A DNA stretch of 47,659 nucleotides, filler included, from Jimgerdemannia flammicorona (taxonomy: Eukaryota), in the NCBI GenBank assembly GCA_003990765.1. It is 2 parts of 2 records of this genome, joined end to end, with 100 filler letters (N's around TTAATTAATTAA, not from the genome) between each part and the next. Parts side by side here need not be neighbours in the genome. Positions count along the whole stretch, not along the records: positions 1 to 23,781 come from RBNJ01001066.1; 1 more part is not named here. The stretch is one strand, 5' to 3'. A program made the position numbers and the translations under genes. Below the pieces are notes generated by a model. The model saw only the letters and a program-made list of their open reading frames with translations. It was not told where the DNA came from and made no database searches. Position 1 is the stretch's first letter, and each line of letters begins with the position of its first letter. Below, piece by piece: positions 4,568 through 47,099 of this stretch.

Positions 4568-6627
4568 TGTAAGCGCACAACCTCCAAGCTACCAAAATCA
4601 CACATCACCCTCTGAACAAGCCACTGAAATCTCATACAACCTCTGAACAAATCTGGAAATCACCTGCTTGATCACGAAGCTGAGTCAAACCAAAGTCACA
4701 GCGCACAAAGCTGAGTCAATATGAAGTCACAGAATACAAGAATTACATAAACGGAATCTTACCAATTAGGACCAAATACATATATACCGAGCACTAAGAT
4801 ACATTGAATCAGAGAACTAAAACAAACAAGAACTACAACTTCCAAACACACAAACATGACCACCAAGATCTATACCCATATCTGCGCTGACATTTGGAAT
4901 GCCATTGTCAACTGAGCTACACCCTCTCTGCCCCTCATGAATATCCATAGCCTAGCACCTCTCTACTTCATGGAAGCCCAATGGAATACTCTGAACATGC
5001 TTAGCGAGGCCTACTGAATCAGACAAATCTCAAGCTACTACCAGATCGGCCGCCTCCTGGAAGACATAGTCGAACACCACCATGATACAGACATTACCCA
5101 GATGTCTCAACACCAGAAGCTCATTGCCTACAAACATCGAGAACTCTTTTACGAGTACAGTACCATTATTCCCCGCCTCTGAGTTACTACCAGTGAAATA
5201 GTTGCTATCCTGTCCTACGGCCAAATCGATGACATGATACAAGAACTCAACCAGAAGTACCTCGAGTATGTCGAAACCACAGACAGAACCTTCCCACACC
5301 CCAATGATCATATCCTGCAAATGCCCCAAGTTGGATACGCCATGAAGGATATCTATGATATAATCCACTTCGATGAAGATGAAGCAGAAGACAATAACCC
5401 CTCTGATGCCAACATGACCTCTAGCCAAGGATCTCTGCCAACCCTGATCACTCTGCCAATCTTGCCGATGAACTTACAACAGTTCATAACTACATATGAG
5501 ACTTATTGGGACAATGACCACTGGCATGAATACCAACCTACATTTATTCCTAATTATTTTAACTACAATGAAGAGACTGGAGAACATAACCTGTACCTCT
5601 AGACAACCCTCGAGATTGAACCAACCACTCTACTACCTGAGTACAAGCAATATGAACCACAGCCGCCAGCTTATTACAACTCTACAACTCATAGTACTAT
5701 AACCTACAGAAGGTATGCAGATAGTAAATCCGATGAAGGTGAAGATGATACACCCCTCCTTTGCCCACCAACACCTTATCTAGCATATGAGATGGATGAT
5801 GCTATCCTGTGGGATGGTGATGAAGTCCAATATATTATTACCTCAGTGAACAAGGAGAAGTAATCTGTGAACCACTTTTCCTAGACAACTACTTTATTAG
5901 AGATGATGCAATTGACAGTGATGTCATCAAGAACTACCCAAACAGTGCCTAAACCCATAAATAGCCTAGCAGTCATAGTATAGTTAGATTAGCTTTGTAC
6001 AATGTGACTGTGAACTGACTCAGCAGTCAGATGATCTCTTAACATGTCAGATCACTCTTTACTATGTGACCGCATTCCGACTCAGCAAAGCACTTAGTGC
6101 TATATCCATATCTAGCATAGTCCAGATAGCCCCTCATTAGTATAAATACCCCCTCTCCCAGACCTCAGAATCTCAGACTCGAACACACAAGAACATTCCT
6201 GAATACTTCCCCACAATATCCCTTCACACAACTACTCCTAATATAGTAATATCATGAATAGCAAATAAACCTATTCAATAACTCACAAACCACTCTTAAG
6301 TAAATCTGCTCCCTATTAGGTCTCACTCCTAACCCCATCATGAAATTTCCTAATTGGGCATTGTCTGCAGCGATACACCAATTCAACTAAGCTGGTCTTA
6401 GTTTCTTGAACTTTCTGAAATATGGAAAATCCTGAACATCCAGAACTAGTCCAAAAAAGGACTTTGGTTGAGATGTCAACCCGATCTTGAAATCAATAAG
6501 CGTAGAGGATGTACTCCATATAAAATTGATCTTGACCATAAGAAAACAGTCTTCCAGAATATCCAGAACTTCCAGAAAATCTTTCCAGAACTACATAATG
6601 GTTATCCTAAAAAGTAACTCTCTTATA
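4568..6627 (+). mobile_element. ~2.06-kb TG..CA element (probable solo LTR), copy 1
   Basis: Starts TGTAAG and ends CTTATA (CTTACA with one transition). It interrupts LINE A ORF2 exactly: GTCCTTG|insert|CCTAA-TAGCAACTAA, versus GTTCTTGTAGCAACTAA in LINE B. Degenerate 5-bp TSD CCTTG/CCTAA. TATAAATA at 6141-6148. Confidence 0.85.
4856..5952 (+). pseudogene. Decayed ~365-codon ORF of unknown function inside the 2.06-kb element
   Basis: ATG 4856 (MTTKIYTHICADIWNAIVN...) is in frame with track ORF 5234-5602. It is interrupted only by TGA/TAG codons explicable as CGA/CAG transitions and by a 1-bp deletion near 5826 relative to copy 2. It ends ...KNYPNSA-TAA. Confidence 0.75.
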
Positions 6628-6963
6628 CCTAATAGCAACTAAGACTGGAATAGCACCAGGGGAGGATGGGCTACTGTGGGACTTTTGGAAGAAGATGGTT
6701 AAGGTTCCTGGTATTTTGGGTGAGATGACTGCTCTCTGTGATCATGTTCTTCAGAGTGGTGAGTGGGTTGGAGAGCAGGACCTTGGGCTGGTGGCTTTAT
6801 TGTACAAAGACAAGGGGAGGAGAGAAGACTAGAAGAACTGGCAACTGATCATACTTTTGGATATGGACAGAAAGATGGTGACTAAGGTGGTTGTTGCAAG
6901 GCTGCTGGGAGAGGAGCAGTGGGGCTTTGTTGGAGGCAGACTTATAAGAGATGGGACTGCATA

Positions 6964-9025
6964 TGTAAGAGGGTTACTTTTTAAGATAACCATTATGTAG
7001 TTCTGAAAGGGTTTTCTGGAAGTTCGGGATGTTCAGGAAGATTGTTTTCTTATGGTCAAGATCAATTTCATATGGAGTATGTCCTCTATGCTTATTGATT
7101 TCAAGATCGGGTTGACATCTCAACCAAGTCCTTTTTCAGACTAGTTCTGGATGTTCAGGATTTTCCATATTTCAGGAAGTTCAAGAAACTAAGACCAGCT
7201 TAGTTGAATCGGTATATTGCTGCAGACAATACCCAATTAGGAAATTTTGTGATGGGGTTAGGAGTGGGACCTAACAGGAAGTGGATTTACTTAAGAGTGG
7301 TTCATGGGTTATTAAATAGGTTTATTCGCTATTCATGATATTGCTATACTAGGAGTTGGTTGTGTGAAGGAATATTGTGAAGAAGTATTCAGGAATGTTC
7401 TTGTGTATTTGAGTCTGAGATTCTGAGGTCTGGGGGAGGGGATATTTATACTAGTGAGGGGCTATCTGGACTATGCTAGATATGGATATAGCACTAAGTA
7501 CTTTGCTGAGTCAGAATGCAGTTATATAGTACAAGTGTGATCTGACATGTCAAGAGATCATCTGACTGCTGAGTCAGTTCACAGTCATGTCATACAAGGC
7601 TAATATAACTATACTATGACTGCTAGGCTATTTATAGGTTTAGGCACTGTCTAGGTAGTCCTTAATGACATCACCATCAATTGCATCATCTCTGATGAAG
7701 TAGTCATCTAGAAAGAGTGGTTCATGGATTACTTCTCCTTGTTCACTGAGGTAATAATACATTGGAACTTCATCTCTGTCCCACAAGATGGCATCATCAG
7801 TCTCGTATGCTGGATAAGGTATTGGTGGGTGAAGGAGGGGTGCATCGTCTTCACTTTCGTCGGATTTGCTGTCTGCATACCTTATGTAGGTTACAGCACT
7901 ATGAGTCACAGAGTTGTAGTAAGCTGGTGGCAGTGGTTCATGTTGCTTATACTCGGGTGGTGGAGTGGTTGGTTCAATCTCAAGAGTTGTCTAGAGGTAC
8001 AGGTTGTGTTCTCTAGTCTCTTCATTGTAGTTGAAGTAATCAGGGGTGAATGTGGATTGGTATTCATGCCAGTGGTCATTGTCCCAATAAGTCTCATATG
8101 CTGTTATGAATTATTGTAAGTTCATTGGCAAGGTTGGTGGTGTGATCAGAGTTGGCAGAGATCCTTGGCTAGAGGTCATATTGGCATCAGAGGGATCATT
8201 GTCTTCTACTTCATCTTCATCAAAGTGGATTATATCATAGATATCCTTCATGGTGTATCCAACTTGGGGCATTTGCAGGATATGATCATTGGGGTGTGGG
8301 AAGGTTCTGTCTGTGATTTTGACATACTCGAGGTACTTGTGGTTGAGTTCTTATATCATGTCATCAATTTGGCCATAGGATAGGGTAGCAACCATTTCAG
8401 TTGTAGTAACTCAGAGATGGGGAATAATGGTGCTATACTCATAGAAGAGTTCTCAATGTTTGTAGGTGATGAGCTTCTGGTGTTAAGACATCTGGGTAAT
8501 ATCTGTATCATGGTGGTATTCGATCATGTCTTCCAGGAGGCAGCTGATCTGGTAGTAGCTTGAGATTTGTCCGATTCGGTGGGTCTCACTAAGCATGTTC
8601 AGAGCATTCCATCGGGCTTCCACAAAGTAGAGGGGTGCTAGGCTATGGATATTCATGAGGGGCAGAGGGGGTGTGGCTCCATTGACAATAGCATTCCAAA
8701 TGTCAGCACGGATACAAGTATAGATCTTGGTGGTTATGTTTGTGTGTTTGGAAGTTGTGGTTGTTGTTTGTTTTGGTTCTCTGATTCAATGTGTCTTGGT
8801 GCTCGGTATATATGCATTTGGTTCTGATTGGTAAGATTCTGTTTGTGTAAATCTTGTGTTCTGTGACTTCATATTGACTCAGCTTTATATACTGTGACTT
8901 CAGTTTGACTCAGCTTCGTGATCAAGCAGGTGATTTCCAGATTTGTTCAGAGGTCACATGTGATTTCAGTGGCTTGTTTAGAGGGTGACATATAATTTCA
9001 GTGGCTTAGAGGTTGTGTGCTTACA
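6964..9025 (-). mobile_element. ~2.06-kb TG..CA element (probable solo LTR), copy 2, inverted relative to copy 1
   Basis: TGTAAG at 6964 and CTTACA ending at 9025. Perfect 5-bp TSD GCATA (6959-6963 and 9026-9030). Reverse-complement match to 4568-6627 along its length. The LINE RT frame resumes on both sides. Confidence 0.9.
7640..8737 (-). pseudogene. Second copy of the ~365-codon element-internal ORF
   Basis: 1098 nt from an ATA (mutated ATG) at 8737 to the stop at 7640. It includes track ORF 7640-7909 (…YADSKSDESEDD…DVIKDYLDSA) and matches 4856-5952. Confidence 0.75.
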
Positions 9026-11029
9026 GCATAGGTATATGGTGTCATTGAAGGGGCCTGGGCTTATGCCCTGAATAGAAGGTTGGTCTTCTTGGACCAGGAG
9101 AAGGCCTATGACTGGGTCTGGCAGGTCTGGCTGGGCAAGATATTGGATTATATTGGTGTTCCTCCCAGATTTCAGGCTTCTATGTTGAGTCTGCTAGAGG
9201 GCAGTTAGGCAGCACTGATGTGTAATGGTCACTATGGTCTGATATTTACCTTGAGAAGAGGGGTTCCTCAGGGGGACCCCCTGTCCCTTATTCTTTATAC
9301 CCTCTCATTGGAACCATTGATGGATAGGATTCGCCAGAAGGTGGTAGGGCTCTCTATCTATGACATAGTATGGAAGGTGGGAGCCTTTGCAGATGATATA
9401 GTGGTTGGCCTTAGGTCTGTAGCAGATGTCAAGGCACTTAAGGAGATGGTGGAATAGTATGAGGATCACTCTGGAACAAAGCTCAACTGACATAAGTATG
9501 AGACTATAGTGCTAGGGAATGGGCTGGTGGGTGGAGACATCATTGGAACAATTGTCTCTACTAGTGAGGTGGTACAGTATCTAGGCATCTTCCTCTCTAT
9601 ATATGGCTCTGTCTTACCATGGGTGTGGTGGGAGAGCAGGGTGGCTGTTTGGGGGGAGGCCCTTTAAGGTTGGGGAGGCCACCATATCTCTCTAGCAAGA
9701 TAGGTATCAATTTTGAATATATATATACTGATTCCCCAAGCTGTGGTATGTGGCCTACCACCTAAACTTCCCAGCTTGGGTGGTGAAGAGACTGACAAAG
9801 GTAGCTAGGGATTGGATTTGGACAGAGAGGAGGTCCCAGATCAGTTGGGATACTCTTGTGACACTGGTGGTCTGGGGAGGTCTTGGCCTTGTGGATTTCC
9901 CTAAGAGGTTGCACTGCTTGTGAGCCTGGTGGTTGAAGAGAGTGGTTGAACTGCAAGGAGGGGGTTGGGTGTCTCTGCTACAGAAGGTGTGGGAGATGAG
10001 AACCTCCCCCCAAGAGTCCTCAGGTGATCTACTCTCTTTGGTAGGGCTCAATGGAATTTGAAAGCTGCAGTTAAGGGCTTTTGGTGGAGAGTGGTCAATA
10101 GAGTACACAGAATTGGTCTGCACTGGCAAGGCAATGAGGGGGAGGTATTGTGGGGACCTAGTATGTGGCGATAGGATAGACTGCTACTGGGGGGCACTCT
10201 ACTTACTGCTTTTGATATTGGGGATAGAGTGGAGTGTCAGCAGGGTCTTAGCTAGGATCTTTGGCCAAGTGGTTGACAGGCAGTTGGGATCAGTGAGGAG
10301 TGGGACTGGGCAGGTATCTGGTCTTGGAGTGCTGAGGTACAGCAGTAGTTTTCCCCCAAGTTCTGGGTGGTGTGGTGGCAAATGCTGTGGAGGAATATTA
10401 TGCTGAATTTTCACACTGGGTATCTGGTAGATGGAGGCTGTTTTGATTGTGAGGAGTGTTATAATATAGGGCAAGCTGGGGGTTTAGTGTAGATGCCAGA
10501 ACATTGGCTGGGAGAGTGTGAGGTTTTGGGGGACTTTTGGGTTAAAATAGGGAATAGACTGAGTGTAGAGCATAGGCCAGTGAGTGAGGGGGATTGCTGG
10601 GAGGACTTGAGATCTCAGCTAGTGAGGGGGGTGGATAATAGTTGGCTCACTATTGGATGGGTGTTAGCAATTTGGGTGGGATTGGCAGGATATTGGCTAT
10701 TTGTGTTTGAGGAGGGATGGCAGATGACACTGCAGGAGAAGATTTTAAGGTGGAAGGAGCTGTTGGGGGATCTGATGACTGGATGGTGGATAGGTTGGGG
10801 TCCTTCAGGGGGGTGATGGTGAGGTTTGGTGGTGAGGATATGCAAACAGAGTGGTGGGAGGGTGGGGATTGGTTTCGATAGAGTGGTGTTTTGTTGAGAA
10901 GAGGTAAGGAGAAGAGGCCCCCATAGGGGGATTGGATAGGGGGTGGGTTCACTGTACTTATATGGGATAGATGGGGGTAATAAAGGAAGAGTCCAAGTGA
11001 CTATAAAAAAAAAAAAAAAAAAAAAAAAA

Positions 11030-11720
11030 TGAGTTCAGGACAGATAGTGTTGATGAGTTTGAGGCAGAAGAGCATGTTGATGAGTTCAATGAGTTTGGGC
11101 AGATGGGTATGGTAATGATAATAATAATAATAACAACAGAGACACCAGAAGAAATATCAATGGATGGACCAGATGATGATAAGACCCCTAATAAATTAAA
11201 AGGAAATAGACATACCTGGGAACAGGCCAATTTGACATGAGAGAAATGGGCATATCAATGAGTTTGGAGAGTTGATGAATTCAGGGCAGATGGTGTTGAT
11301 GAGTTCAGGACAGAAGAGCACATCAATGAGTTTGATAAGTTCAGACAGATGGGCATGGTGATGATAATAATGATAACAATAGAGATACCAGAAGAAATAT
11401 CAATAGATGGACCAGATGATGACAAGACCTCCAACAAATTAAAAAAAAATAGGCATACCTGGGAACAGACCAATTCAATATGAGAGAAATGGGTATGTCA
11501 ATGAGTTTGGAGAGTTGATGAGTTCAGAGCAGATGGTATTAATGAGTTTGGGGTAGATGGTATTGATGAGTTCAGGGCGGATGGCATTGATGAGTTTGGG
11601 GCAGATGGGTATATCAATGAGTTCAATGAGTTTGAGCAGATAGATATGGCAATGATAATAATGATAATAACAGGGATACTAGAAGAAATGTCAATAGCTG
11701 GACCAGATAGTAGAATGTCT
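11030..11720. repeat. Tandem repeat, about three copies of a ~243-bp unit with internal GATGAGTT(C/T)(A/G)GGGCAGATG subrepeats
   Basis: The block GAAGAAAT(A/G)TCAAT..(A/C)TGGACCAGAT recurs near 11148, 11391 and 11683. CATACCTGGGAACAG recurs at 11211 and 11454. Confidence 0.8.
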
Positions 11721-20870: not shown

Positions 20871-21235
20871 GATTGCAAATCAAATTAAATTTATGATGTA
20901 CCAGACTAAGTATACTAATTTGAAGTAAAGAGAAGTTTTCTATAATATTAGTGACAGAGTTATGCTTAGAACAGACTATCTCTATCCAGATATCTTGGCC
21001 TAGCAATCCTTCAAGAAGCTCTGTATCAGAAGAATTAGACTATACAAGCTACAACTTCCCTACAATATCTGAGTCTATCTAGTATTTTATATCAGTCAAT
21101 TAGTAGACTACTATAAAAACCCTTTCCTCAAATATACAGTTCTATCACTACTCCTAATTAGAATTAATAACTATAAGAAATTCAAAATTGAGAAAGTTCT
21201 TAATTATAAGATTTGCAAATATATAAAAACAGTCA

Positions 21236-22549
21236 CCTTTCTCTACTATAATTTACATTATACATACTTTTATAATATACTTTCAAGTCATTTATTGGAG
21301 AAAGATACTAAGGCAATGGTAAACAGTAAGCAAGTAGACACATATATTAGGTCAAGTGGATCCATGCTTACCAACAACTCTCTCTGCTATAAGGAATGAC
21401 GTGCCCAGATAGGCAACATGAGCAATACAGATAACATGGACAATATAGGCAACATGGGCAATATGGGTGAGCAAGACAGACAAGATGGGCAAGACAGATA
21501 AGATGACAAAATGACAAAATGGGCAATATGGGCAAGATGGACAAATAGCAAGATAGGCAATATGGGCAAAATAGACAAAATGAGCAATATAGACAATATG
21601 GGCAATATGGACAACATGGGTAATACAGGTAGGCAAGATGGGCAAGATGGGCAAGATGGGTAAGACAGGCAAGATAGGCAAGACAGCAAGATAACAAGAT
21701 GGGTAACATAGGCAAGACAGGCAAGATGGACAAGATGAGCAAGATGGGCAAGACAGTAAGATGGATGACATGGGCAAGATGGGCAGATGGCAAGACAGGT
21801 GATATGGACAAGATGGGCAAAATGAGCAAAATGGGCAAAATGGGCAACACAGGCAATATGGGCAACATGGGCAATACAAGCAACATGGGTGAGTAATATG
21901 GGTAATATGGATAATATAGGTAATATGAGCAACACAAACAACATGGGCAGGCAAGACAGAAAGATGGGCAAGATGGCAAGATGGCAAGACAGATGACATG
22001 GGTAAGATAGGCAGACAGCAAGACAGGCGATATAGACAAGATGAGCAAAATGGGCAAAATAGGCAATATAGACAATATAGACAATATGGACAATATAGAC
22101 AATATGAGCAATATGGGTAATACAGACAACATGGGCAATATGGGTGGGCAAGATAGACAAGATGAGTAAGATGGGCAAGATGGGTAAGATGGACAAGACA
22201 GCAAGATAGCAACATGGGCAATATAGGCAATATGAGCAGGCAAGATGGGCAAGATAGACAAAATGGGTAAGATGGGTAAGATGGGTAAGACAGGAGGTAC
22301 TAATAGAGATAGGTCAAATGCACTAGATGCCAAGTACTTGAGGTGGTTAGGACTCACAATCCATACCCACTCTTGGGTGGGGCAGGCTGAGTAGGAGGAT
22401 CTAGTTACTTGGGCAGTAAGATCACAACTCATATCCTAAAGATACAAGGCTGAGTGAGTATAAAGGTGGGTTGAGATTGGGGTGGAATGGGGCTACTGAT
22501 ATAATATGAGGATATATAGCATGTTATAGATAGTTAATAAATGAGAAAA
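21236..22549 (+). mobile_element. Composite non-autonomous retrotransposon: LINE 5' head, VNTR and A-tailed 3' segment
   Basis: Perfect 19-bp TSD AAATATATAAAAACAGTCA (21217-21235 and 22550-22568). 21237-21362 is collinear with the 5' end of LINE B (30226-30101, minus strand). AATAAA at 22536-22541 is followed by a short A run. Confidence 0.82.
21406..22292 (+). repeat. ~890-bp VNTR of 9-bp units (ATGGGCAAG / ATGGGCAAT) with 8-bp variants
   Basis: Directly visible; accounts for the three low-complexity minus-strand ORFs at 21352-22432. Confidence 0.95.
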
Positions 22550-22770
22550 AAATATATAAAAACAGTCAAGTAGTTTTTCCTTATCAAGTAGAGGAGTTAC
22601 CCTACTCATAATACTATCTGGAAAAAGAAAGAAGTACTGAAAAATATATATAAAGCTCACTAGAACTATATAGAAATACTTACTCTATAATAAGAATAAA
22701 AACTACAACTCTAAAACCAGAATATATAGTAAATATGAAAGAGATTATTATGTTTATCTAAGATATGTAT

Positions 22771-23781
22771 TGTCACGTAGTGGTCGCTGAGTCCTTCAAA
22801 TATGCCAGATTCTCTTCAAGGTGTATCTCTTAGACTAACTCAAGTTTGTTATAAGCAAGTTCTTATTGGAGTGCCTTCCCAAGGTCTTATAGTCCTCAAA
22901 CTTCTTATCTTTAACTGTCTTGTTATCTCTTTAGATTACTTGCAAGGGATTGTGTATTGCACTGAACTTGACTGAATGCACTGAATTGACTGACTTTATT
23001 TCAGAGGAAATAAGAGAGGTATTTATACAAAATAGAATTCAATGGTTGCTAAGATATAAAGCTAAATATAAATTTCAATAACTAAAACTACTGAGTTCTA
23101 GGGCTGGCATTATTTAGTACCACATCAAAATACCAGTGCTGGAACAATTTCGCGTCACCTCAGAATACCAGTGCTGGCATTATCCAGTGTTACATGAGAA
23201 TACCGGTGCTGGCATTATCCAGTGTAACAAAGAACTTTTAGAGCAGAAAGTTCAGGATCATGGGAGCTTCATCATCATCATCACTGAAGGAGATGAGATC
23301 CGCGAATTTGTCATGTAGGTCATGCGTCTCACGTACTTCGTCATTTTCGCATGCCTCGATGTTGCGCGGGATGACGTCATCGATGACGTCATCACGTTCG
23401 GCTGTGGCGGGAAAATCAGGAACAAGGTCTGGAGCTCTCCAGTCTATGAGGTTCTCCTCTACAAAATAGGGGACAAATGTGGGGTCTTGGGGGGATCTAA
23501 CCCGGATGCTTGGGCCTTGGAATACTGAGATCAATCCTTGCAGGAATTGGTCTGGGTTGTCCTGAAGGATAGGGTGCCAGAAGTCTTCTACTTCTTTGCT
23601 GTTGAGGGTGATGGTGGACTGGGCTTCTGTAGCTACCCTGGCTTCTAGTGCATTGATGCGGCGGGATGACAGGTCTCTGAAGTCTGAGACTCTAACATAC
23701 TCCAAGTTGGGGATCGACCATGGTGCATGCCTGAAGATCTGATGGATCTTCTTTGCTGTCCTTGCCTCACGTAAGTCTATG
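22771..23781 (-). mobile_element. Young LTR 3' portion, truncated by the assembly gap
   Basis: Abrupt TGTCACG terminus at 22771. Minus-strand TATAAATA at ~23020-23027. AATACC(A/G)GTGCTGG direct repeats at 23129-23230. CpG is retained, unlike in the flanks. Confidence 0.7.
23238..23780 (-). CDS. Uncharacterised LTR-element accessory ORF, 5'-partial at the gap
   Basis: Open without stops from the gap edge: IDLREARTAKKIHQIFRHAPWSIPNLEYVRVSDFRDLSSRR...FSDDDDEAPMILNFLL*. It shares a motif with 35490-35885. Confidence 0.7.
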   Translation of the reverse strand: MDLREARTAKKIHQIFRHAPWSIPNLEYVRVSDFRDLSSRRINALEARVATEAQSTITLNSKEVEDFWHPILQDNPDQFLQGLISVFQGPSIRVRSPQDPTFVPYFVEENLIDWRAPDLVPDFPATAERDDVIDDVIPRNIEACENDEVRETHDLHDKFADLISFSDDDDEAPMILNFLL

Positions 23782-23881
23782 NNNNNNNNNNNNNNNNNNN
23801 NNNNNNNNNNNNNNNNNNNNNNNNNTTAATTAATTAANNNNNNNNNNNNNNNNNNNNNNNNNNNNNNNNNNNNNNNNNNNN
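23782..23881. other. Assembly gap with artificial TTAATTAATTAA linker
   Basis: 44 N, then TTAATTAATTAA (23826-23837, stop codons in all six frames), then 44 N. Confidence 0.98.
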
Positions 23882-24047: not shown

Positions 24048-24332
24048 GTCACTCAGACTCCTTCCTTTATTAATACACCTGTCTATCCTCTATATAATAT
24101 ACTGTACCCACTCCTATCTAATCCTCCTAGGGGGTCTTTCCTCCTCTTACTCTCTCTTAATGAAAGACCACTTTGTTATTTATCATTACCACTCACCCAC
24201 CACTCAATTCACAGATCTCTTCTACTAGATGGTGATGTTGCCTACTCTAGAGACCCCAACCAATCCACCACCCTGCCAGCAAATCACCCATCAACCTCTT
24301 CCATCTTAATAATTTCTTCTATATACCTATCC
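24013..24332 (-). mobile_element. 3' end of older 5'-truncated LINE copy E (continues at 30245-30610)
   Basis: A poly(T) from 24013 followed by ATAGTCACTCAGAC is the reverse complement of the LINE 3' end. It joins 30260 onward when LINE B is removed. Confidence 0.75.
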
Positions 24333-27300
24333 TTTTTTTTTTTTATTTTTTATTTTTATAGTCACTCAGACTTTTCCCTTTATTAAAATACCATCTATCA
24401 TCTAAATAATATACAATGCCCAACCCTATCCAATCCCCCTAGGGGGGCCCCCTCCTCCTATCTCCACTTGATGAAAGATTACTTTGTCTAACACCATCTC
24501 TACCTGCCCATCACTCTGTCTGTAGATTCTCTCTACCAGGCGACAACGTATATCACCCTGGGGACCCTAACCCACCCACCACCCAGTCAGCAGATCCTCC
24601 ATCAACCCCTCCCATCTTAACAACTTCTTCTGTAAACCTATCTACTGCCCCTTCTTGAAGACAAAGAGCCAATATCTAGCCAGCCCTACCCACACTGCTA
24701 AGACTCACTCTATAGTGAGCCAACCATTGCCCACCCCACCCACAAGCCAAGATTCCAAATTCTTCCAGTAATCTCTCTCTCCATCCGGCCTCCTCTCCAC
24801 TCCCAGCTGCTCCCCTACTGCTATCCAAAAGTCCCCCAGAACCTCACACTCTCTCAGTCAATATTCAGATATTTGTACAAATTTCCCAACTTTCTCTACA
24901 TTATAATACTCCTCACAATCTAAATGGTCACCCTCTATAAGATGCCCAGTACAGAAATTCAACATGATATTCCTCCTCAGCATCTACCACCATACTACCC
25001 AGAACTTAGGAGGAAGCCACTGCTATACCTCAGCACTCCATGACCAGACTCCTACTCAGTCTCACTCCTTGCCAATTCTTACAGTCTGTCAACTACTTGG
25101 CCAAAGATCCTGACCAAGGCCCTGCTGACACTTCACTCCATCACCAATATCAAACTCAGCAAGTGGAACACCCCCCAAAAGGAGTCTGTTCCATTGCTAC
25201 ATAGCTGAACCCCCCTGTACCCCCCCCTCATTGCCTCGCCAGTGTAGTCCTATCCTGTGTGTACCATCCACCACCCTCCACCAGAAGTCCTTATGCCATA
25301 GCTGTTGCTCCCAGTCAGGCCCACCAGAGAGAGCAAATCTCCTGAGGACCCCTGAGGGGAGAACCTCATCTCCCACACCTTCTGCAGTAGCAGCACCCAC
25401 TCTCCTCCCTGCAGTTCAACAGCCCTTTTCAACCACCAAGCTTGCAGACAGTACAGCCACTTAGGGAAATCCACAAGGTCTAGTCCTCCCCTAACCACTG
25501 ATATTGCAAGAGTATCCCAACTGATCTGGGACCTCCTCCCTGCTCAAATCTAATCTTGAGCCAATTTTGTCAGTCTCTTCACCATTCAAGCTGGGAAGTC
25601 TAAATGATAGGCCACATACCATAGCTTGGGGAACTAATAAACATTCAGAAATGACACCCACTCTGCCAGGGAGATGTGGTGACCCCCCCAACCCCTAAGG
25701 GCCTCCCCCCAAATGGCCACTCTCCTCTCCCACCACACTCATAGCAATATAGATCTATATAGAAAGAAATATGCCCAAGTACCACACCACCTCTCCCATG
25801 GAGACAATTGTTCCAATGACATTCCCTCCCATCAGCCCATTCCCTAACACCATTATCTCATACTTATACTAGTTGAGTTTCATCCCAGAGTGTGCCTCAT
25901 ACCATTCCACTATCTCCTTGAGTGCCTCAATGTCCTCCACTGATCCAAGCCCAACCACTATATCATCTGCAAAAGCCCCCACCTTCCACACCACACTATA
26001 TACAGAGAGCCCTACCACCCTCTGATATATCCTATCCATCAAAGGTTCCAAAGAAAGGGCATAAAGGATAGAGGACAGTGGGTCTCTCTGAGGAACTCCT
26101 CTTCCCAAGGGAAATGCCAGACCCCAGTGACCATTACATGACAGCACTGCCCTACTGCCCTCCAACAAATTCAGCATAGAAGTCCAAAACCTTGGGGGAA
26201 TACCAATTCTATCCAACACCTTGCCTAGACATACCCACTGAACATGGTCATAGGCCTTCTCCTGGTCCAAAAAGACCAGTCTACCATCTAGTTTACAAGC
26301 CTGGGACCCCTCAATAATGCCATACACCTAGGCAGTCCCATCTCTAATAAGTCTGCCTCCTACAAAGCTATGCTGCTCCTCACCCAGAACCTGTTGGGCA
26401 ACCCTCTATAACCTTACAACAATCACCTTAGTCACCATCTTCCTGTCTATGTCCAGAAGCATGATTGGTCTCCAGTTCTTCCAGTCCTCCCTTCTTCCCT
26501 TATTCTTGTACAATAAGGTCACCAGCCCCAAGTCCTGCTCACCAACTCACTTGCTATTCAGAAGAACATGGTCACAGAGGGCAGCCATCTCTCTTAATAC
26601 TCCAGGAACCTTCACCATCTTCTTCCAGAAGTCCCAAGGTAACCCATCCTCTCCTGGCACTATCCTCAGTTTAGTTGCTACAAGAACTCTCTGGATCTCC
26701 TCCTCTTGGACTGGTAAGATCAAATCACCCAGTCTGTCTACTTGCAGTGGCTCCCACTCCTCCAGTGTATCTTCAATTACCTCCTCATCTGCACCCCCTT
26801 CCTCCTCACTCCACAGACCCCTCCAATTTTCCTTTAGTGCTCCCAAGATCTGTTATATGCTATACACTATATCTCCCTCAGCATCCAAGATCCCATTCCA
26901 TCAGTGGTGCACCCTCCTAGCTTAGAGAAGCCTTGACAGATACCTAGTGGGCCACTCCCCTTTCTCTAGCCTCTGCCACTGTAGCCTGGCTGCCATACCT
27001 TTCATATGAATCTCCTTCTCTTCTCATAATATTTGTTGCAGCTCCACCACCTCCAACTTTGCTCACTCCAACCTCCAATCCTCCACCCCTTCCAAATAAA
27101 GCAACTTGGCCCACTCTATCTGCAATCTAATCAGCCTATTAGAAGCATACCATATATACTTCCTTCTCAGCCTCCCAGCCTCCCTACTAGCTTCTCCCCA
27201 ATAAACCCTTATAGTCTCCTTCAACCTCATCTACTGGGCCTCTACAGTTAATCCCTCCTGTGTCTAGGTAGCGATCTTCACTTGGACATCCTCCATCCAT

Positions 27301-30244
27301 AGGTCCCACAACCCCTTCTTGGCCAGCAGGAAGGAGTTAAGGTGCCAATATCCAGGTCCATCTCCACTCCCCCCAAACTGTCCCTGCCCCAATAGCCCCT
27401 AGTAATCAGACCAAGAACACTACTCCATCTCCAGAGTTCTTCAAACATCAGCACCCCAACATTCAGCCATCAGAATCCAGTCAATCCTTATACTCAGTCC
27501 ATTTACCCAATGTGTATAGACCCTCCTGTCACCCCATTGTGTTCTGCCCATATCTCCTAAGGAGCTAAGGTTCTCCACTTCCTCCCACTTATCTAGCCCA
27601 CTACTCCTCCCACCTGCACTTCTTCCTCCATCAGTTCTATTCAGCTGTGGATCCCTCACCATATTAAAGTCACCTCTCAGAATATTGACACCTTCCTCCA
27701 AGAAGACATCCTCCTCCAGCAGATCCCTGATCTACTCAATCTGCTCACCCCTAACTGCAGGATAGTAGCAGGAGCCAATCCTAACTGATTCCCACCCAGG
27801 TTGGTGCCATTCTCCCCAGACCAAACAGTCTCCCCAGTTCTGAATTCTGCTCAAGTCCCCTCTCCCCTTCCTCACCAGAATTACCACTTTGCTATTCCAA
27901 GCAGTAGCTTCTCCCCATTCTCTAGTTCACTCCACTTGATCTTCCTCATCCTCACACTATACATCCTGTAGTAAAAAGATAACAGCCTCCAATCTCTTAA
28001 GCTAAGTAAAAATGTTCCTATGTCACTCTGATCCCCATAGCCCATTCACATTCAGAGAAAAAATACTAGTTATACTATTCATAAGGAATAATGTTGTTTA
28101 TTGATCATGCCCTCTACAGATCTGCATTCAGCTCCTCCTGTACCAAGTCTAAGTCATGTTCTGCAGCCAGTGCCTTCTCCTCAGTTGCCTACATCTCCAA
28201 CCCAGCCAGAAGTTCCACCATCACCCCATCCTCCTTTTCCTCGAAGTCCTCCTGGTATTCCAAGCATACCTCCTGCCAGAGTTGCAACCCATAATGCTCT
28301 GCCCAATAATAGACAGCCCTCTCACCAGCAATGATCACCAACTCAGCCTCTCTCACCTCATCTACCACATATCTCTCCTTCTCCTTGAAAATCACAAGTA
28401 TCTCCACCTTCAGTGCCTCCACTACCCCATCTCCATGCAGAATCTGTACCTAGTGCTCCTCCAGCATCACACACAGGTCAACTTCTCCCAACTCCTCAGC
28501 TGCGAGGTTATCCATCACCTTGCTCATCCACAGCAAGTTTCCCACCTCTCTCCCTCCAGGAGTTCCTGGCTGCCCTACATCCAGCATTATGATATCTGCT
28601 CCCATATTGGCAGCCTCCTCCCACTCCTTCTCTGGGATATCCACCAGCTCATCCTCACCAACTGCCACCACCTGGCCTCCATTCACCACATCCGGGACCC
28701 TAAAGCAAAACTTGCTGGGCCCCCTGCATCAGCATATCCTCCACTGCTCCTCTCCTCTCAACTGGGTCCCTCCTGATAAGTGGGGGGGAGGTGTCATCCA
28801 ACTCCTGCTCCCAAACTTCGAAGGTACTGTCAGTATATGGGTCCTTGCCCAGCATCTTCCCAGCCCTTTCCTCATTTGCCTCCACCTCCTCTCCTCCTTT
28901 GTTAGCCCAGATACTAGCTTTGATACCTCCAGACTCTTCAGCTCCAACCAACTTCTTCTTCACCCCTCCTATCATACTTGCCAACAGCTCCCTCTACCTC
29001 TTGTGTCCCTGGACCTGCTCCCACTGCTTCCTGTCAGTTCGAATATGCTTCCCATCCACAACCTCCAGATGTATCGACTCCTCATATAGCTTCCAGGCTT
29101 TCACCCTTCTCTCTACAGTACCACTCAACTTCTCCAGCACCTCCAACAGGTTCTCCTCCTCCTCTTCACTCCCTTTCACCCTTGACACCTTACAGATGAA
29201 GACCTCCCACATTAGCACCAAGGGCCAGTCACTTAGCTTCCCTGTGGCCTCCTTCTCTGCCAGCCAAATCCTGACATCAACATCACCTATTCTGAATGTT
29301 GTCTCCTCCTATATCTGAAAGCTAATATCCACCACATCACCATACTCTACCATTACCTCCTCCACCCTCCTTCTAGTCTCCTTCTTAGTCACCATGGGCA
29401 CCCCCCTTACCAGAAGCTACACTACTCTGGGGTCTCATCTTAAGCACCACACCATAGGGACCACTATCTCCCCAACTACTACTCCAGTCTTCAGGGTCTC
29501 ATCTAGTGGGCCCATCTCCTCAAAGCCTACCTCAATCCCCTCCAGACCCTTCAAGAACTTCATCAAGGCCACTCCAGCCATCTGCTTCAAAATAAGCCCC
29601 AGGACCATCCTTGCCATCACTGCTAAGCCCTGGAAGCACAAGGTAGCTGTGAACTCTGAGATCAACTTCTTGAGCAACAGGGCTACTACCAGTCCTGTTA
29701 TACCATCTGCCAGATCCCCTTTCCATATCAGGAATCTCTGCCCCCCCTGGCCATCAGCTATTATATTTCTTTTTTTTTCTGATTTGCCATCATACTACCA
29801 TCAGCAGTCCTGCCACTATCCCCAGCAGCTACTCCACTTCCTCCACCTCCCACCAGTGAAGGTCCAGCTCCCCCAGTATCTCCAACCTTCTGCTTCTCCT
29901 TCCCTTCTGCCTGTCTACTGCGGGCTCCCATCAGCCAGCCCCCAGTCCTCAGCATATCCATAAAGCTCCTTCTCTACCACCCTCTGGCCCCCCCACCAGT
30001 ACTGCCTCCACTGTCCAAGCTGTCCTGCCTACTTGAGCTATTGAAAGACCCCATCTCCAGCCCATACCCTCTCCTGACATGCTGCCAGTCGAAGGCCCCA
30101 GGTCTGCCTGACCTAGTATGCATATTAGCTTACTTGTTGGTTGATATTGTCTTAATATCTTTCTCCAATAAATGAATCAAAAGTATGTTGTAAAAGTGTG
30201 TATAACGTGAGTTGTAGTGGAGAAAGATATCCCAGAGACCTCTG
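24333..30244 (-). mobile_element. LINE copy B, full-length, decayed
   Basis: Poly(T) at 24333. RT motifs LVFLDQEKAYD, GVPQRDPLS and AFADD (25869-26327). APE motifs GDFN and RIDWIL (27441-27701). ORF1 remnants 28114-30150. Degenerate 15-bp TSD TCTATATACCTATCC (24318-24332) / TCTGTATACCCATCT (30245-30259). Confidence 0.92.
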
Positions 30245-30610: not shown

Positions 30611-31117
30611 CACTCTCTTCCTTTTGCTATCATTAATAAAATATTATTACAGTATATTATGAGCTATATAGGAAGTTGACTGATCTTGGACATCAAGTAT
30701 CAGTATAGATTATCTGTAGGTTATTAGTATCTATAATAGAGCTCTCTGAGCTTTGATAAGCTTTTCAGTGAGTATAGTTCTGATATAGGTGACTGTTTTT
30801 AAGTATAATTAAGATGAGAGAAGAGATGATTATTACAGATAAGAGAAAGAGTAATAATGGTGAATTAGTTGAGTGTTAGACTAGAGACAATCATCAGGAT
30901 TATAGTAAGTATTATCTTATAGAGCCTTTTGATTGACTGGCAAATGATAGAGTAGTATAGTAACTGATATTCTAGCTATATTCAACTGAAACTAAGAGCT
31001 AATATAGTAATACAATTAAAGCCTATAGACTTAAGAAGTAGGATCTTTCTCATTTGGTAGTATTTAACTAGAACTGAGAGCTGATATAGTAATATGATTG
31101 AGGCCTATAGACTCTAG

Positions 31118-34952: not shown

Positions 34953-35410
34953 TGTAACATAGCGGATGCTTACTCTTGAAAGTACATCGGATTTCTGTAT
35001 CTTGAAAACTTGACTGTTCTGACTCTTGCAGAGTCTCTTGAAGTTGTAGGGGAGAGTGGGTGAGTTCGAAGTATATCTGCCTGCAGGCTTACTAGTTTCT
35101 TTGCTATCTCTTTGCTTTGAACTATTTCGATCTGAGGTTTATTCACTCGAAGATACTGGGTTATTTATACAAGTTTGCTAGCTCTGAGAGAGTGGCTAAG
35201 TAATAAATGAGTCATTTGGACTTTGTCAAAACATTTAGACAATGTCTAAATGCTATACTAAATCAGGGTGTTCGATTTGGATAATGTCTAAGAATTTAGA
35301 CAATGTCAAAATTGAGGACTGCTAACTATAAGGCTATACTTCTTTGGGACTGGGTACAATCAAGTGTCTATTCCCTATTTCCTTCTTCCAAATTTGGTTG
35401 TACCATCACA
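34953..35410 (-). repeat. 3' LTR of the Ty3 element
   Basis: TGTAAC...ATCACA. Direct repeat of 47100-47556. Minus-strand TATAAATA (35162-35169) and AATAAA (35138-35143). Purine tract AGGAGGAAG is adjacent at 35412-35420. Confidence 0.93.
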
Positions 35411-35489
35411 ACTTCCTCCTGAATAGATGGTCTTATCCCTGAGGCATCTATTCAAACTCCCAGGCTTCAACCATCTATATGGTCTTGTA

Positions 35490-35885
35490 CTATGCAATTT
35501 GCTGCATGACTGTTTCCCAATGATGTCTTCTCACTTTCTTGAAGTCAGTGGGGGTTACTTCTCTCAGGTGGTCTATCACTGGTTCATCTTCTCGGAAAAA
35601 CTTGTGGATCCTTTTGGCAATAGTGATCTGTGAGTGGGAGAGTTGACACTTGGCAATCCAGTCCTCTTTGGTCTTTGCTGGATCCTGATTGAGCACCTGT
35701 CTAAGCTTGAAGTACTCTTGGAATTCTGCCCGATATTGATAGGCTCTAAAGTGTGAGATCTGAGAGAGATGAGTCTGCACAATAATCTGAATATCCTCAT
35801 AGTATGGCTCTATGGTCGGAGGCTCGGTGGTGTGCCATTGTCTTTTGATGGCTCTTTGGGCAGCACTAGTGATCTTGAGTGCCAT
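35490..35885 (-). CDS. Uncharacterised domain, in frame with the integrase C-terminus
   Basis: 131-aa track ORF (MALKITSAAQ...METVMQQIA region). The upstream codons read TTIH*N*LKKYLASNKSTA-M with no stop between the integrase GPY/F tail and this ATG. Confidence 0.75.
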   Translation of the reverse strand: MALKITSAAQRAIKRQWHTTEPPTIEPYYEDIQIIVQTHLSQISHFRAYQYRAEFQEYFKLRQVLNQDPAKTKEDWIAKCQLSHSQITIAKRIHKFFREDEPVIDHLREVTPTDFKKVRRHHWETVMQQIA

Positions 35886-37090
35886 CGCAGTACTTTTGTT
35901 ACTGGCCAGATATTTCTTGAGTCAGTTTCAGTGAATGGTGGTGGGGATTATTGTGCCTGAGAGTTTTCGTAGCCAAAAGGTGGTCTCTTTTATATCTTAC
36001 ACAAGGTAAGGTTCTTCCTACTTGGGCTCCAGTTTTCGTGACCATGAAGCTTCTACCATATTCCGATACACCAGGACCTTGTCTCCTATCTTGATAATCT
36101 CCAAGGGCTTGTGGTCTTTTCCACATTCCTCTGTTATAGTGTCTGCACCTTAGTTATGTAATCCTCAGCCTTCTTCCTGATTTGGTGTAGTCTCCATATT
36201 TCTATGTCCACATGTTTCCATACAGCATCTCTATTGGATGATAGGGTTCCTTGAGAACATTCTTCTCCAAACAGCATTTCTCAAGGAGTAAAGTGGGTGC
36301 TTTGTGATCAGATATCCCGGAGAGCAGATAATGCTATTGGCAGATAGTAATCCCAGTTCTTGTAGTTATCACAGATCTTGGCAATAACATTCTTGAGGGT
36401 TTTGTTGGTCCTTTCTACTTATCTGTTTCCTTGGAGGTGATAGGCTGTGGTCTGAATGTGCTAGATCTTGTACTTCTTGTAGAGAACCTCAAAGAGCTAG
36501 TTCATGAATTCTCTTCCTCTATCTGTAGTTACTTGTGTTGGGGTCTTGAACCGGCAGATAATTTCCTTGTGGAAGAAATCAGCAATTGACTGTGCATTGG
36601 CTTCCTTGAGGGGTCCTGCTTCTATCCACTTCATAAAAAGGTCTACGATGACAATGATGTATCAGTTACCAGTCAGGGTCAAGGGTAGAGGGCCGATTAC
36701 ATCTATTGCTATATGGGCAAATGATACTGGTTCTATGTGTGCTGATCCTGGGGCTTAATTCCGTTGGTCTTGTTTCTGTTTCTGGCATTTATCACATATC
36801 TTGACAAATTGTCTGATATCTTCCTCCATCCCTGGTCACCATATTATTCTTCTTGCCTTGTCATATATATTTGTTCCTCCTAGATGGCCAAGTTTATGTA
36901 CTGATTTCATTACTTGCTCCTTCTTGTGTTCTGGTATGACCAGTAGTTTTCCTTTCTTTAGTATTTCTCCATCAGTTTCGAATTGTTTCCATGTTCTGTT
37001 GATAATCGTTTATGTCCATTTTTCCAGATGTTGGGGCATTTTTCGCTGTCCCAGGTATATGATAATTCCATAGTAGAGCTCCTTATTCAT
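35886..37090 (-). pseudogene. Integrase, decayed
   Basis: HHCC (HKLGHLG...CDKCQK), core AHIAIDVIGPLP, TDRGREF, TAYHLQGNR*VERTNKTL, and GPY/F-type KIGDKVLVYR..KLEPK*EEPYLV. Confidence 0.88.
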
Positions 37091-37115
37091 GATTGATTTG
37101 TTGGTTGGAGGTAGT

Positions 37116-38420
37116 TCAAGGTATCCATGAGAGAGCATCTGCATTGAAATTTGTTCTTCCAGGGCAGTGTATGATGGTTACATCATATGCTTGTAACTTC
37201 ATTATCCATCTGGCATAGATTCCCTTGGGTTGTCCAGTTGTCAGTAGCCAGATGAGAGCTGAGTGGTCCATCTGGATGGTGAAGTGTCTTCCAGCCAGAT
37301 AGTAGTAGAACTTTTCCACAGCCCAGATAACTGCAAGACATTCCAACTTATAGGACTCATATTCTTTTTCAGCCTCTTGGGTTCTGCGGCTAAGATATGC
37401 AATGACATATTCTTTCTTGTCTTCTTTTTGAGCTAGGACTGCTCCTAGTCCCTGTATACTTGCATCCGTCTGAAGGATAAATTCTTGGGTCCAATTGGAT
37501 CATCTGAGGATGGGTGCCTGAGTTAGTCTGATCTTGAGTTCATCAAATGCTTTTTGTTGTCTGCCAGTCTACTGGAACTTGGTATCCTTCTTGTTGAGTT
37601 CATAGATTGGACCTGTGATGTTGGAGAATCCTCTAATGAATCTGCGATAGTAGGAGGCAAGTCCCATGAAGGCTTGGGCTTCTGTGACAGTAGTGGGCCT
37701 TGGGTATGCTGCTACTGCTTGTATCTTGAGGGGGTCCATGTGTGTTCCATCTCGATTGATAATATGGCCAAGATAGGAGATCTCGATTTCTGCAAACTTG
37801 CACTTCTTGGGTTTGATATAAAGGTCATGTTGTCTTAGTCTCTCCATTATCTGCTGTATGTGCTGCAGATGTTCCTCAGATGTCTTGCTGTAGATGATTA
37901 CATCATCGACATAGACCATCATCCATCTTCCCATGTCATAGCGGAAGATTTTGTTCATCATTCACTGAAAGCTTACTGGTGCATTGCACATTCCAAATGG
38001 CATTCATAGGTAGATGTAGGTTCCATCTGGTGTGATGAAGGCTGACTTTTCACTTGCCATCTCTGTGAGTCCGATTTGGTGAAATCCTGAGTATAAGTCC
38101 AGGGTGCTGTAGTACTCTGCTTCATCTCCCAGTGTTATAAGAATGTCACTGATGAGTGGCAGTGGTTTGTGATCCTTCTTGGTAACTGCATTGAGCTTTC
38201 TGTAGTCAACACAGAGCCTTGGGGCAAATTCTCCAAGTTTGCTTCCTTTTTTCAGGGCTAGTACAACTGGTGAAGACCAAGGGCTACTGGCTTCTTTGAT
38301 GATGCCAGCTTCTTCCATCTGCTTGATTTCTTCTCTGAGCCATTCTCGGTAGGCTGGCGGGACAGATCTTGCCTTCTGATAAATTGGTTCAGTGTCTCCA
38401 GTATCTATCTCATGATAGTA
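37116..38420 (-). pseudogene. Reverse transcriptase and RNase H, decayed
   Basis: SSPWSSPVVL, RLCVDYRKLN, LDLYSGFHQI, MPFGMCNAP, VYVDDVIIYS, FILQTDAS, ECLAVIWAV and NADALS. Confidence 0.95.
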
Positions 38421-38603
38421 GTATGGGGTCTTTCCCTTGATATCCTTGAAATCCGTGGCAAGAACATCCTCGAATTTGTGGAGTATCTTCTTGAGTTCCT
38501 CTTTGAGTGGGAATTCATCTCCAATGGTGTAACTGTGCTTGCTTGTGTTTTCCTCCTTCTTATGCTCGAGTTTGGTGATCTTGGTGCTGGTATATACTCC
38601 TCT

Positions 38604-39020
38604 TCCTGTGGATCCAAATCCTTTCTTTCCTCTTTTCGTTTTCTCCAGATTCTTGACTTCTATGATCCTTGGCTGTATGATTGAGAAGATCAACATCTGT
38701 ACCAATTGGTCCTTCTTCTTGACTGGGAATGGAATTGTAGGATTGTGGTTCCTAGCAATGAGTAGAATTTCTCCAGTATAGTCTGAATCAATGACTTCTC
38801 CTTCGATTGTAATTTCGCTTCTAGCCAGGCTGCTTCTTGTCTTGAGAATCCCAATATGATCCTTTGGGATGGTCATCTCTAGTCCAGTTGTGAGTAGGGT
38901 GGTTGTCTGGAGTTCGAGTACAGTTTCTTCTACTGTAGCAATGTCCATTCTGGCTGCGTTTTCTGACTTGTATTCTGGCAAGACTGTATCAGGGTGGATC
39001 TTTCAAATCTTGACCTTGAT
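38604..39020 (-). CDS. dUTPase domain within pol
   Basis: The five trimeric dUTPase motifs are recognisable in order: AARMDI, RSSLA, VIDSDYTGEI, DQLVQML and RGKKGFGSTG. It is in frame with RT in ORF 38004-38981. Confidence 0.92.
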
Positions 39021-39369
39021 TTCTTCTTCATCATCACTGTCCTCCAGGAGGGCTGGTGGTTCGTTATCTTCCTCCTTCTCTTCTTCTCTGATCTGTTTTT
39101 CGAGAGCTTTCTGTCTTCTTTCCTGGTAGATCTTCTTGGTTCTGATGGTGCACTAGTAGCAATCATTGACGTGCTCCATACAGTACATCTTGATTCCATG
39201 AGAACAGACTCCTTGTGGGACATAGCCTTCTGTGATCTTCTTGCACCATTCTTCTTCACTCATCTATCCAACTTTCTTCTTCTTTGGAGTAGTCACTATA
39301 TAGACTTCCTCTTGCTCACTCTCCTCTTCCTCTATATCAGGTAGGACTCCTTTATTGACATTGATGGGA

Positions 39370-39740
39370 ATTCATATCTTCTGTCCCTGGTAGGTGATCT
39401 GCATCTTCTGAGCATTGAGATCGATTATTGCCTTGGCTTTGTGAAGCCATTGATTGCCAATGAGGATGTTATACATAGTTGGTGGCATTGGTTACGATTA
39501 TATCTACTGGGATTGTTGCTCCTCCGATCTTGATGGGAACATCTTGGATCTTTCCTAGAGGTGTGGCTCTTGTGCCATCAGCTGTGATGAATACTAGCTT
39601 AGTTGCTTCTTCCACATCCCAACCTAGGTGGTCTGCTGCCTTCTTACTGAGGAGACATTCTCCTGCTCCCGTATCAATGATGGCTTCAAAGGTTCTATCT
39701 TCGATTTGGCATGTTGCATAAGCAGAGGTTTTGCGATTAT
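39370..39740 (-). pseudogene. Retroviral-type aspartic protease
   Basis: EAIIDTGAGECLLS in ORF 39469-39834; ILIGNQWLHKAKAIIDL follows after a frameshift. Confidence 0.9.
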
Positions 39741-40787
39741 CCTTACTTTCTTCTCCTGAGTTCTCTTGAACATTGTTGGCCTCAGTTATCTTCCATCCTT
39801 GTTCCTTAGTTGTTTCGGCAAGTCCAAACCTCATTTGCTGTCTGAATGTTAGGATTTCTGTAAGCTGACCAAAGGTTGCATTGACCTTTTGTTGACTGAG
39901 ATCCTTGAAGATATCATACTTGAAGGTCTTGGTCTTGCGAAGCTTCTTTTCTTTTTCTCCTTCACTGGCTGGAGTGGTTCCTCAGATGATATCTTGAACT
40001 GCTTGCTTCAGCTTGATATCTTGGTCCATCTCTTCGGCTTGGCTTTCTGTGTCAGTTTCCATCTACTTTTCTACTGGGTTCTTCTTGGGTCTTTCTGGCA
40101 GTCTCTTGTAGGGTTCTTTGCAAGCATCCTTCTTGGTGGTCTGAGCAGAATAGGCCTCCCATTCCTCTTTATCAGATTCTTCAATTTCTTCAAAGGTGAT
40201 TGTATTGGCCTGCTCCTTGTTTTGTATGGTGTTGCTTGGTTGAGCCTTGTGTTTGGTTTCACTCATACATTCATAGGAGTAGTGGCCTTCTTCTCCGCAG
40301 CTGTAGCAGGTACCTTTCTTCTTATCTGAGGTGGCGGCAAACTTCTGAACAGGGTGGCGATCTCTTCCTCAGATTTCCTTTACCACATCTCCCAGGTGGG
40401 CAGTCATTTCAGCAAACCTTTTGGTGAGTTCCTCCATAGGGTCACTGTTCTTTTGCTGCTCTGTAGCTTTTGGCTGGGGTGTGTTTTGATTGATCATTGT
40501 GGTGGGAATCATACTGGTTGCCTTGGGTGCCTCAATTCTGACTCCTGTAACTCTCTCCATTGTATGGTCTTGTGGGTATCCAGTATTGCTGAGCATAGGT
40601 GACCTTCTGTGGCAGATCCAGAATCACTGATAATGAGTGGATGGCCATGGCTATTTCTGGATGGACTCCTTTCATGAAGGTTGCTTTGGCCAACCTCTCC
40701 ATCTGCGACTCTTTCCAGTACCATTCAGGTTACACAACCTTTGGAAGGTACTTTCAACATCATTTTCGGCAAAAAGAGACTAACAAC

Positions 40788-42811: not shown

Positions 42812-42844
42812 AGGCTGATTGACGACATCACATATATCATCAAA

Positions 42845-47078: not shown

Positions 47079-47096
47079 ACCAGCCAATAAGCACCA
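47079..47096 (-). promoter_or_regulatory. Primer-binding site of the Ty3 element
   Basis: TGGTGCTTATTGGCTGG begins 3 nt inside the 5' LTR boundary and is complementary to a tRNA ending ..GCACCA. The tRNA identity was not assigned. Confidence 0.7.
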
Positions 47097-47099
47097 AGT

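Follow-up and report, generated by a model that had tools for sequence, protein, structure and literature searches.

A fungal family of non-autonomous poly(A) retroposons combining a minisatellite body and constant 3' tail with heads of several origins

The locus described here lies in a window of 47,659 nt from Jimgerdemannia flammicorona (GCA_003990765.1), i.e. the whole stretch of DNA that was analyzed. The window consists of two contigs (C1066 and C1067) joined by a spacer at 23782-23881, in which two runs of N surround a 12-nt palindrome. A composite element is located on the plus strand of the first contig between two 19-nt target-site duplications (21217-21235 and 22550-22568); the last A of the left one can alternatively be counted as the first base of the element. 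As had been claimed in the original prediction, the flanking 19-mers are identical: AAATATATAAAAACAGTCA is found at exactly two sites of the window, 21217 and 22550, and is absent from its minus strand. From 5' to 3', the element comprises a head corresponding to the 5' UTR and first ORF1 codons of a LINE family termed alpha (head type A, 21236-21362), a 48-nt linker common to A-type copies (21363-21410), a minisatellite core (21411-22291, TRF and unit analysis), a constant 3' tail of ~255 nt and haplotype T1 (22292-22545) with AATAAA at 22536-22541, and a short A tail of 4 nt (22546-22549). The latter runs on into three A of the right-hand duplication, which gives an A run of 7 nt. TRF reports the array with period 9 at 21481-22290 (~90 copies, 68% matches), and an onset near 21412 brings its length to ~880 bp. 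The layout of head, 9-mer array and tail with polyadenylation signal and A run had been predicted, without the linker, which had been missed.

The predicted similarity of the head to LINE B was confirmed. LINE B (24330-30226, minus strand) is a decayed copy of the head's donor family. Like LINEs C and D it is located on the second contig, and it is not a physical neighbor of the element, since the N spacer separates the two contigs. BLASTN aligns 21237-21317 with the LINE B 5' end (30226-30146, minus strand) at 84% identity over 81 nt, and a gapped alignment covers 118 nt (90/118, 76%). The head is closer to other LINE alpha copies than to LINE B (107/127 against the copy in L060). Its ORF1 ATG at 21316 is followed by a stop after only 27 codons, and head type A presumably carries an internal Pol II promoter. 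The first part of the linker matches an antisense stretch of LINE ORF1 (20/21 nt against window 32337-32317, L020 copy, E 2.7e-4). Inversion of the 5' part during insertion is a behavior of L1, and such an event would fit the antisense piece. The duplications of LINEs B and D, given as 15-17 bp in the original prediction, are seen by eye at ~14-16 bp and with mismatches.

Ten tails of the family differ by 0-2 of 248 nt, which marks one subfamily as recent. Compared with these near-identical tails, the window copy is changed at 25 sites, of which 23 are G>A or C>T, and two CpG are left in its 1314 nt. It is best explained as an older, mutated member of the LINE-alpha-headed subfamily. The tail has no match in Rfam, no tRNA (ARAGORN) and no Pfam match in its 51-aa minus-strand frame. 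The sequencing runs listed as containing such sequence are five soil metagenomes with small shares, with no RNA run among them. When four of these metagenomes were aligned to the tail and its flank, a single contig spanned 22293-22441 (15 differences in 149 nt), no empty site was found among them, and coverage fell mostly on the neighboring LTR-like repeat. The start of this repeat (22770-23300) adjoins the element and is covered by many contigs from the four metagenomes.

A search of the genome with the tail yielded 350 candidates, 40 of which were scored and match at 86-100%. Exact matches number 270 for a motif from the middle of the tail and 244 for one from its 3' end, compared to none for the controls. 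With at least 270 tail copies, the element is not a single-copy curiosity. The array directly precedes the tail in 23 of the first 30 loci, and the other seven reach the contig edge within 9-29 nt of repeat. For the analysis of insertions, 150 distinct tail-bearing copies were sampled, 85 with enough flank for a duplication test. A target-site duplication beside head and tail was found in 53 of these 85 (3/600 for shuffled pairings), while the remaining 32 have none at the threshold used. The duplications are 12-26 nt long with a mode of 15-16 nt, and their first base is A in 39/53 copies. A tails are present, with variable 3' spacers, and the array measures ~630-1400 bp among headed copies. 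Forty copies are headless, and the 20 nt on their 5' side differ from copy to copy, which would be the outcome of 5' truncation or interruption. One A-type copy (L138) is split by an insertion of ~7.6 kb and still keeps its 19-nt duplication. Three near-identical copies are interrupted by assembly breaks, and duplications of 16-19 nt allow their parts to be matched up on different contigs. Frame-shifting units, early stops and the lack of a Pfam match leave no coding capacity. By its interspersion, duplications, A tails, 5'-truncated copies and non-coding nature, the family is a non-autonomous poly(A) retroposon. The non-autonomous element of the original prediction thus belongs to a multicopy family, with array and tail at many loci, duplications that differ from locus to locus and arrays of variable length.

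The spread of a minisatellite by DNA-level duplication, or the entry of a VNTR into an already deleted LINE at this locus, would be in keeping with the G-rich and unstable array, in which assembly breaks cluster. Both are very improbable: at sites unrelated to each other, the duplications flank head, array and tail as one unit, the copies end in A tails, the array has no duplication of its own, and the same array-tail junction is found in 51 of 51 aligned tails.

The array is built from 9-nt units (GGCAAGACG, GGCAACACG and GGCAAAACG) and variants of 8, 7 and 4 nt, which are arranged in higher-order modules. In each module, a GGCAACACG run is followed, after a 4-nt spacer, by a GGCAAGACG run, then by a pair of 8-nt units and a short invariant motif, and last by a GGCAAAACG run. 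It is repeated two to four times, in a subfamily-specific order, and most heads join the array at the GGCAACACG run. One frame of the 9-mer reads Gly-Lys-Thr or Gly-Asn-Thr and the minus strand contains stop-free frames of 308-355 aa, as if the array encoded a Gly-X-Y (collagen-like) or other repeat peptide. Such a product is scarcely credible, as the 8-, 7- and 4-nt units shift the frame in every module, the head ATG ends after 27 codons in the window copy and after 15 in copies with a shortened A head (A'), and the minus-strand frames are explained by unit composition.

The head is the variable part of the family, array and tail the constant part. At least seven origins can be distinguished among the heads. 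Two are LINE families with RT, another is LINE-like, and two more are non-coding poly(A) retroposons; a further head consists in part of an antisense transcription factor exon, and for one head type (G) no donor was found. The LINE-B-type head, taken as a defining part in the original prediction, is a minority type. Among the 150 copies, a sample biased by targeted searches, heads of type G are found in 21 copies, B and E2 in 16 each, F2 in 13, E1 in 7, C in 6, A in 4 (plus one linker-only copy), D in 3, F1 and F3 in 2 each, and E0 and G2 in 1 each, with only one clear copy known of G2 and a single one of E0. The remainder is headless (40), cut by contig ends (16) or carries a false head that was later dropped (1). 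When 72 copies are counted in the order of their contigs, the commonest heads are E2 (14) and F2 (13); A-type copies collected before this count carry other identifiers. Fifteen further head-only copies are of type A', nearly all of them cut by contig ends. A candidate 'head H' (L197, L030) was rejected, because truncated copies had inserted there into an LTR-like repeat, whose start had been mistaken for a head, and candidates I, J and K, all single copies, were left out before classification.

Heads A and A' correspond to the 5' end of LINE alpha, with endonuclease and RT encoded downstream in all three loci fetched. Head B is the first 46 nt of a second family, LINE beta, whose RT is found ~3.6 kb downstream in 5/8 loci and is 44-50% identical to the RT of the window. 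E0-E2 match a third 5' end, epsilon, that is related to alpha and runs on into ORF1-like sequence; the epsilon donor is probably a LINE. The donor of head D (L081, L089, L091, L099) is a separate non-coding poly(A) retroposon of ~1.17 kb, of which the head comprises the initial 78 nt. Its own head has 230 candidates, and duplications, 14-20 nt long, were found in 4 of 28 copies examined, most others stopping at contig edges. Heads F1-F3 stem from phi, an abundant element, and contain its initial 30, 45 and 56 nt; in the single copy followed to its A tail, phi measures ~1.2 kb. Phi (L033, L110, L138; window 30616-31114) is non-coding, with an A tail and, in L138, a 13-nt duplication; its first 15 nt resemble the LINE alpha start. 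Compared with LINE copies, the D donor and phi show no match beyond A runs and other phi-like inserts.

Head C includes 75 nt that are 81% identical to the antisense strand of a transcription factor exon (L141:2571-2645), the locus encoding a Zn2Cys6 and Fungal_trans protein, which also marks the host genome as fungal. At L064:1219-1306, head C leads straight into the 3' (zinc-finger) portion of a LINE and not into an array. Head G (~200 nt) is the largest class, with 144 candidates. No donor was found for it: 52 of 52 copies examined run into the array, the best 40 of the 144 candidates being scored. Where donors are known, the heads begin at the first base of the donor or a few bases off, and the break points in the donors are fixed (alpha 127 nt, beta 46, D 78, epsilon ~69/76/145, phi ~30/45/56). 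A pyrimidine tract opens most heads and is similar in A, E, F and G.

Indels in the tail define haplotypes that are tracked by the head type (87 copies tabulated, head H left out): T1 is found with heads A, C and D, T2 mostly with B, T3 with E and F, and T4, which has a divergent 3' half, with G. A fifth variant with another divergent 3' half is present in three of eight short loci (L346, L349, L350). The association between head and haplotype has a chi2 of 214 (0/2000 permutations, n=88, head H included), and on a noisy tail tree, head H left out, the head label changes 21 times compared to at least 43 in 300 shuffles. As kin share labels, these tests describe subfamily structure and not independent events. 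T1 is combined with alpha, C and D heads and T3 with both epsilon and phi heads; because these donors are unrelated, at least six head replacements are needed. A' and the shorter F and E heads may be later deletions.

The similar pyrimidine tract of heads A, E, F and G would also fit if the family were an internally deleted LINE of the NARTc/RIME type, with array and tail as the 3' UTR of an unsampled LINE and heads acquired by recombination among related LINEs. Local alignment lends this some further support, the last 30-40 nt of the tail being weakly similar to several local LINE ends (z 3.6-5.2); several LINE 3' ends in fetched loci read AATAAA...GACTAT followed by an A run. However, no source of the tail was found: relaxed BLASTN against the window and the fetched loci gives no tail match other than beside an array. 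Among 77 matches of the 3'-end motif on contigs covered by both pattern lists, 64 adjoin the mid-tail motif, 2 are known copies and 8 of 8 fetched are array plus tail, so that family copies account for 74; another, with a G head 1.2 kb upstream, is probably also a copy, and two lie at contig starts. No LINE ORF2 precedes the tail in the 75 matches that do not lie at contig starts. Moreover, a 5' end shared with an autonomous LINE is seen for heads A and B and is likely for E, but heads C, D and F do not derive from RT-bearing LINEs, nor does G share such an end, and body and 3' end do not come from the donor LINE of the head. A deleted LINE is thus unlikely.

A different origin of the heads would be passive, by template switching at each insertion from a headless master RNA onto a nearby RNA (MINE type), with heads that do not drive transcription. 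Template-switch chimeras with hot spots of switching are known in a fungus (PMC2104539). In L064, a 3' fragment of a LINE is joined to head C as well, and several junctions share 1-5 nt with the repeat unit, possibly by chance. Against this, the junction base is identical over many loci (15 A' and 52 G copies), and every head type goes with a particular tail haplotype, 3' spacer and array grammar. A fresh switch for every copy would mix heads and haplotypes, so the fixed pairing makes passive chimeras quite improbable.

The preferred reading, to which we assign a probability of about three in four, is a non-autonomous retroposon family that is moved in trans by L1-like LINEs and has repeatedly captured 5' promoters. 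Its heritable core would be a modular 9-mer minisatellite of 0.6-1.4 kb plus the 255-nt tail with its polyadenylation signal, encoding nothing and having no fixed 5' end. Copies are likely made by target-primed reverse transcription with endonuclease and RT of the abundant L1-like LINEs. Their action in trans, like mobilization by LINE proteins in general, we infer from the shared hallmarks of insertion. These potential partners comprise ~15,000 RT candidates, and among solved structures the window LINE RT is closest to human L1 ORF2p (9e-19, compared to ~1e-11 for R2). The longest stop-free frame in a match of the LINE D type is 895 aa, and no intact driver LINE was found in the search with this type. 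A new subfamily would originate whenever some other transcribed element contributes its initial 30-200 nt to the 5' end of the array. The captured piece would supply the transcription start, and the fusion then amplifies as a unit, as the fixed junctions of most head types show. Two observations lend indirect support to a role of the heads as internal Pol II promoters: only headed forms amplified with a common 5' end, and the initial 33 nt of the alpha/epsilon head recur, at 78-81% conservation, in a LINE from a metagenome (L351:122-190) whose RT is 70% identical.

Several routes could lead to such a capture. We favor, at slightly better than even odds, nested insertion behind a donor start site: a 5'-truncated copy would insert in sense just behind the start of another element, and transcription would then run from the donor start to the core's own poly(A) signal. 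One locus (L221/L154) holds a headless copy with its own 15-bp duplication, in sense ~310 nt into phi, which resumes behind it. This is the intermediate predicted by nested insertion, and it proves that such loci arise, not that they founded subfamilies. A founder locus, i.e. a headed copy followed by the rest of the donor, was not met incidentally among the loci examined. Template switching during reverse transcription is a possible route, though the odds are against it, and DNA recombination is improbable. Splicing is unlikely, because no GT donor marks the donor-side breaks (0/10 alignments).

The original prediction compared the element to primate SVA, which stands as an analogy and does not extend to a hexamer head, a related repeat unit or the same layout. 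A 2015 paper (PMC4432496) calls SVA and LAVA hominoid-specific and, in its accessible text, the sole non-LTR retrotransposons with complex internal tandem repeats. As described there, SVA, LAVA, PVA and FVA are similarly non-coding, with poly(A), LINE-type duplications and interchangeable modules around a repeat. The central tandem repeat of SVA/LAVA is likewise complex, with a subfamily-specific arrangement of units that tracks the 3' domain (PMC4432496, available sections). In contrast, the units given in the same text measure ~40 nt as opposed to 9 nt, and a shared 5' part with variant 3' parts is found there, compared to a shared 3' part with variant 5' parts in the fungal family. The hosts are hominoids in one case and a fungus in the other, with no sign of common descent. 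No CT-hexamer or Alu-like head was seen in the family, its heads being 5' ends of local elements. It works like SVA/LAVA by analogy only, in mirrored layout and without their tested head and host.

Rfam, 7SL included, gave no match at E 0.1 in six loci, and ARAGORN found no tRNA in eight. With no Pol III head derived from tRNA, 5S or 7SL in these loci, the elements are not SINEs in the classical sense. Among fungal SINEs, Foxy has short tetranucleotide repeats. MgSINE, Foxy and Eg-R1 are similarly non-autonomous and LINE-dependent (PMC5063351, PMC6022647), as is plant Sadhu, in which a small-RNA head is also missing and a polypyrimidine tract is found at the 5' end (PMC2848041). The available text of these three papers describes no long modular minisatellite or head swapping for fungal SINEs or Sadhu.

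Further parallels concern the heads. SVA_F1 (MAST2 exon) and pt_SVA_D6 (STK40 exon) also acquired a foreign 5' part, a possible internal promoter, and then amplified as subfamilies; according to the parts of PMC6139936 that are available, these are two events in apes involving spliced host first exons. In the fungal family, by contrast, at least seven origins are present in one genome, mostly retroelement 5' ends and without GT donor. NARTc/L1Tc and RIME/ingi of trypanosomes share the first tens of bases of the LINE (77 nt with a Pol II internal promoter), with one LINE donor and the element being a truncated LINE (PMC5814959, in part), whereas the fungal family has many donors and a body and tail from elsewhere than the donor LINE. 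MINE of Magnaporthe grisea (WEIRD-MGL) are fungal composite retro-insertions as well, with 10-20-bp duplications ascribed to template switching; in the sections at hand of PMC2104539 they number ~30 copies, join a constant 5' RNA to variable LINE 3' parts and have no minisatellite. The fungal family differs in its constant 3' part, variable 5' part and amplified subfamilies. Mouse L1 shows repeated replacement of a promoter-bearing 5' part (11 events estimated) and co-existing families with non-homologous promoters, but is autonomous (PMC3600994, available text), whereas the fungal family is a non-coding parasite of the 5' ends of several co-resident families. Full-text searches, in a collection without most subscription journals and Repbase Reports, turned up neither a VNTR composite from a non-primate host nor a non-autonomous element that swaps its heads.

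A wider reading is held tentatively, at a little under even odds: the VNTR-composite design would have originated independently in a fungus, array and tail would form a promoter-less chassis that serially captures start sites of transcribed retroelements, and the minisatellite would be functional, either recruiting LINE proteins or serving as a landing or pausing site at which joining takes place. If the chassis reading is true, the SVA layout is a convergent solution and not a peculiarity of apes. With its subfamily-specific unit grammar, the fungal family offers an independent case for asking what the repeat does. Its heads of 30-200 nt from seven sources on a nearly identical body form a natural series, which could map minimal internal promoters of fungal L1-like elements and in which promoter capture appears to have been repeated within one genome. 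No effect on host biology has been shown.

Other repeats are present in the window. LINE A is interrupted by a 2-kb inverted pair (4568-9025), the arms of which (4568-6625 and 6966-9025) are ~90% identical and are separated by 330 nt of LINE sequence. A 243-bp tandem unit with 24-bp sub-repeats (11029-11708) immediately follows the A tail of LINE A. On the second contig, a pair of LTRs (34955-47557, 94%) encloses a minus-strand pol with LINE D inserted inside; in this pol, a dUTPase domain precedes the RT (38007-39002; Pfam PF00692, PF00078).
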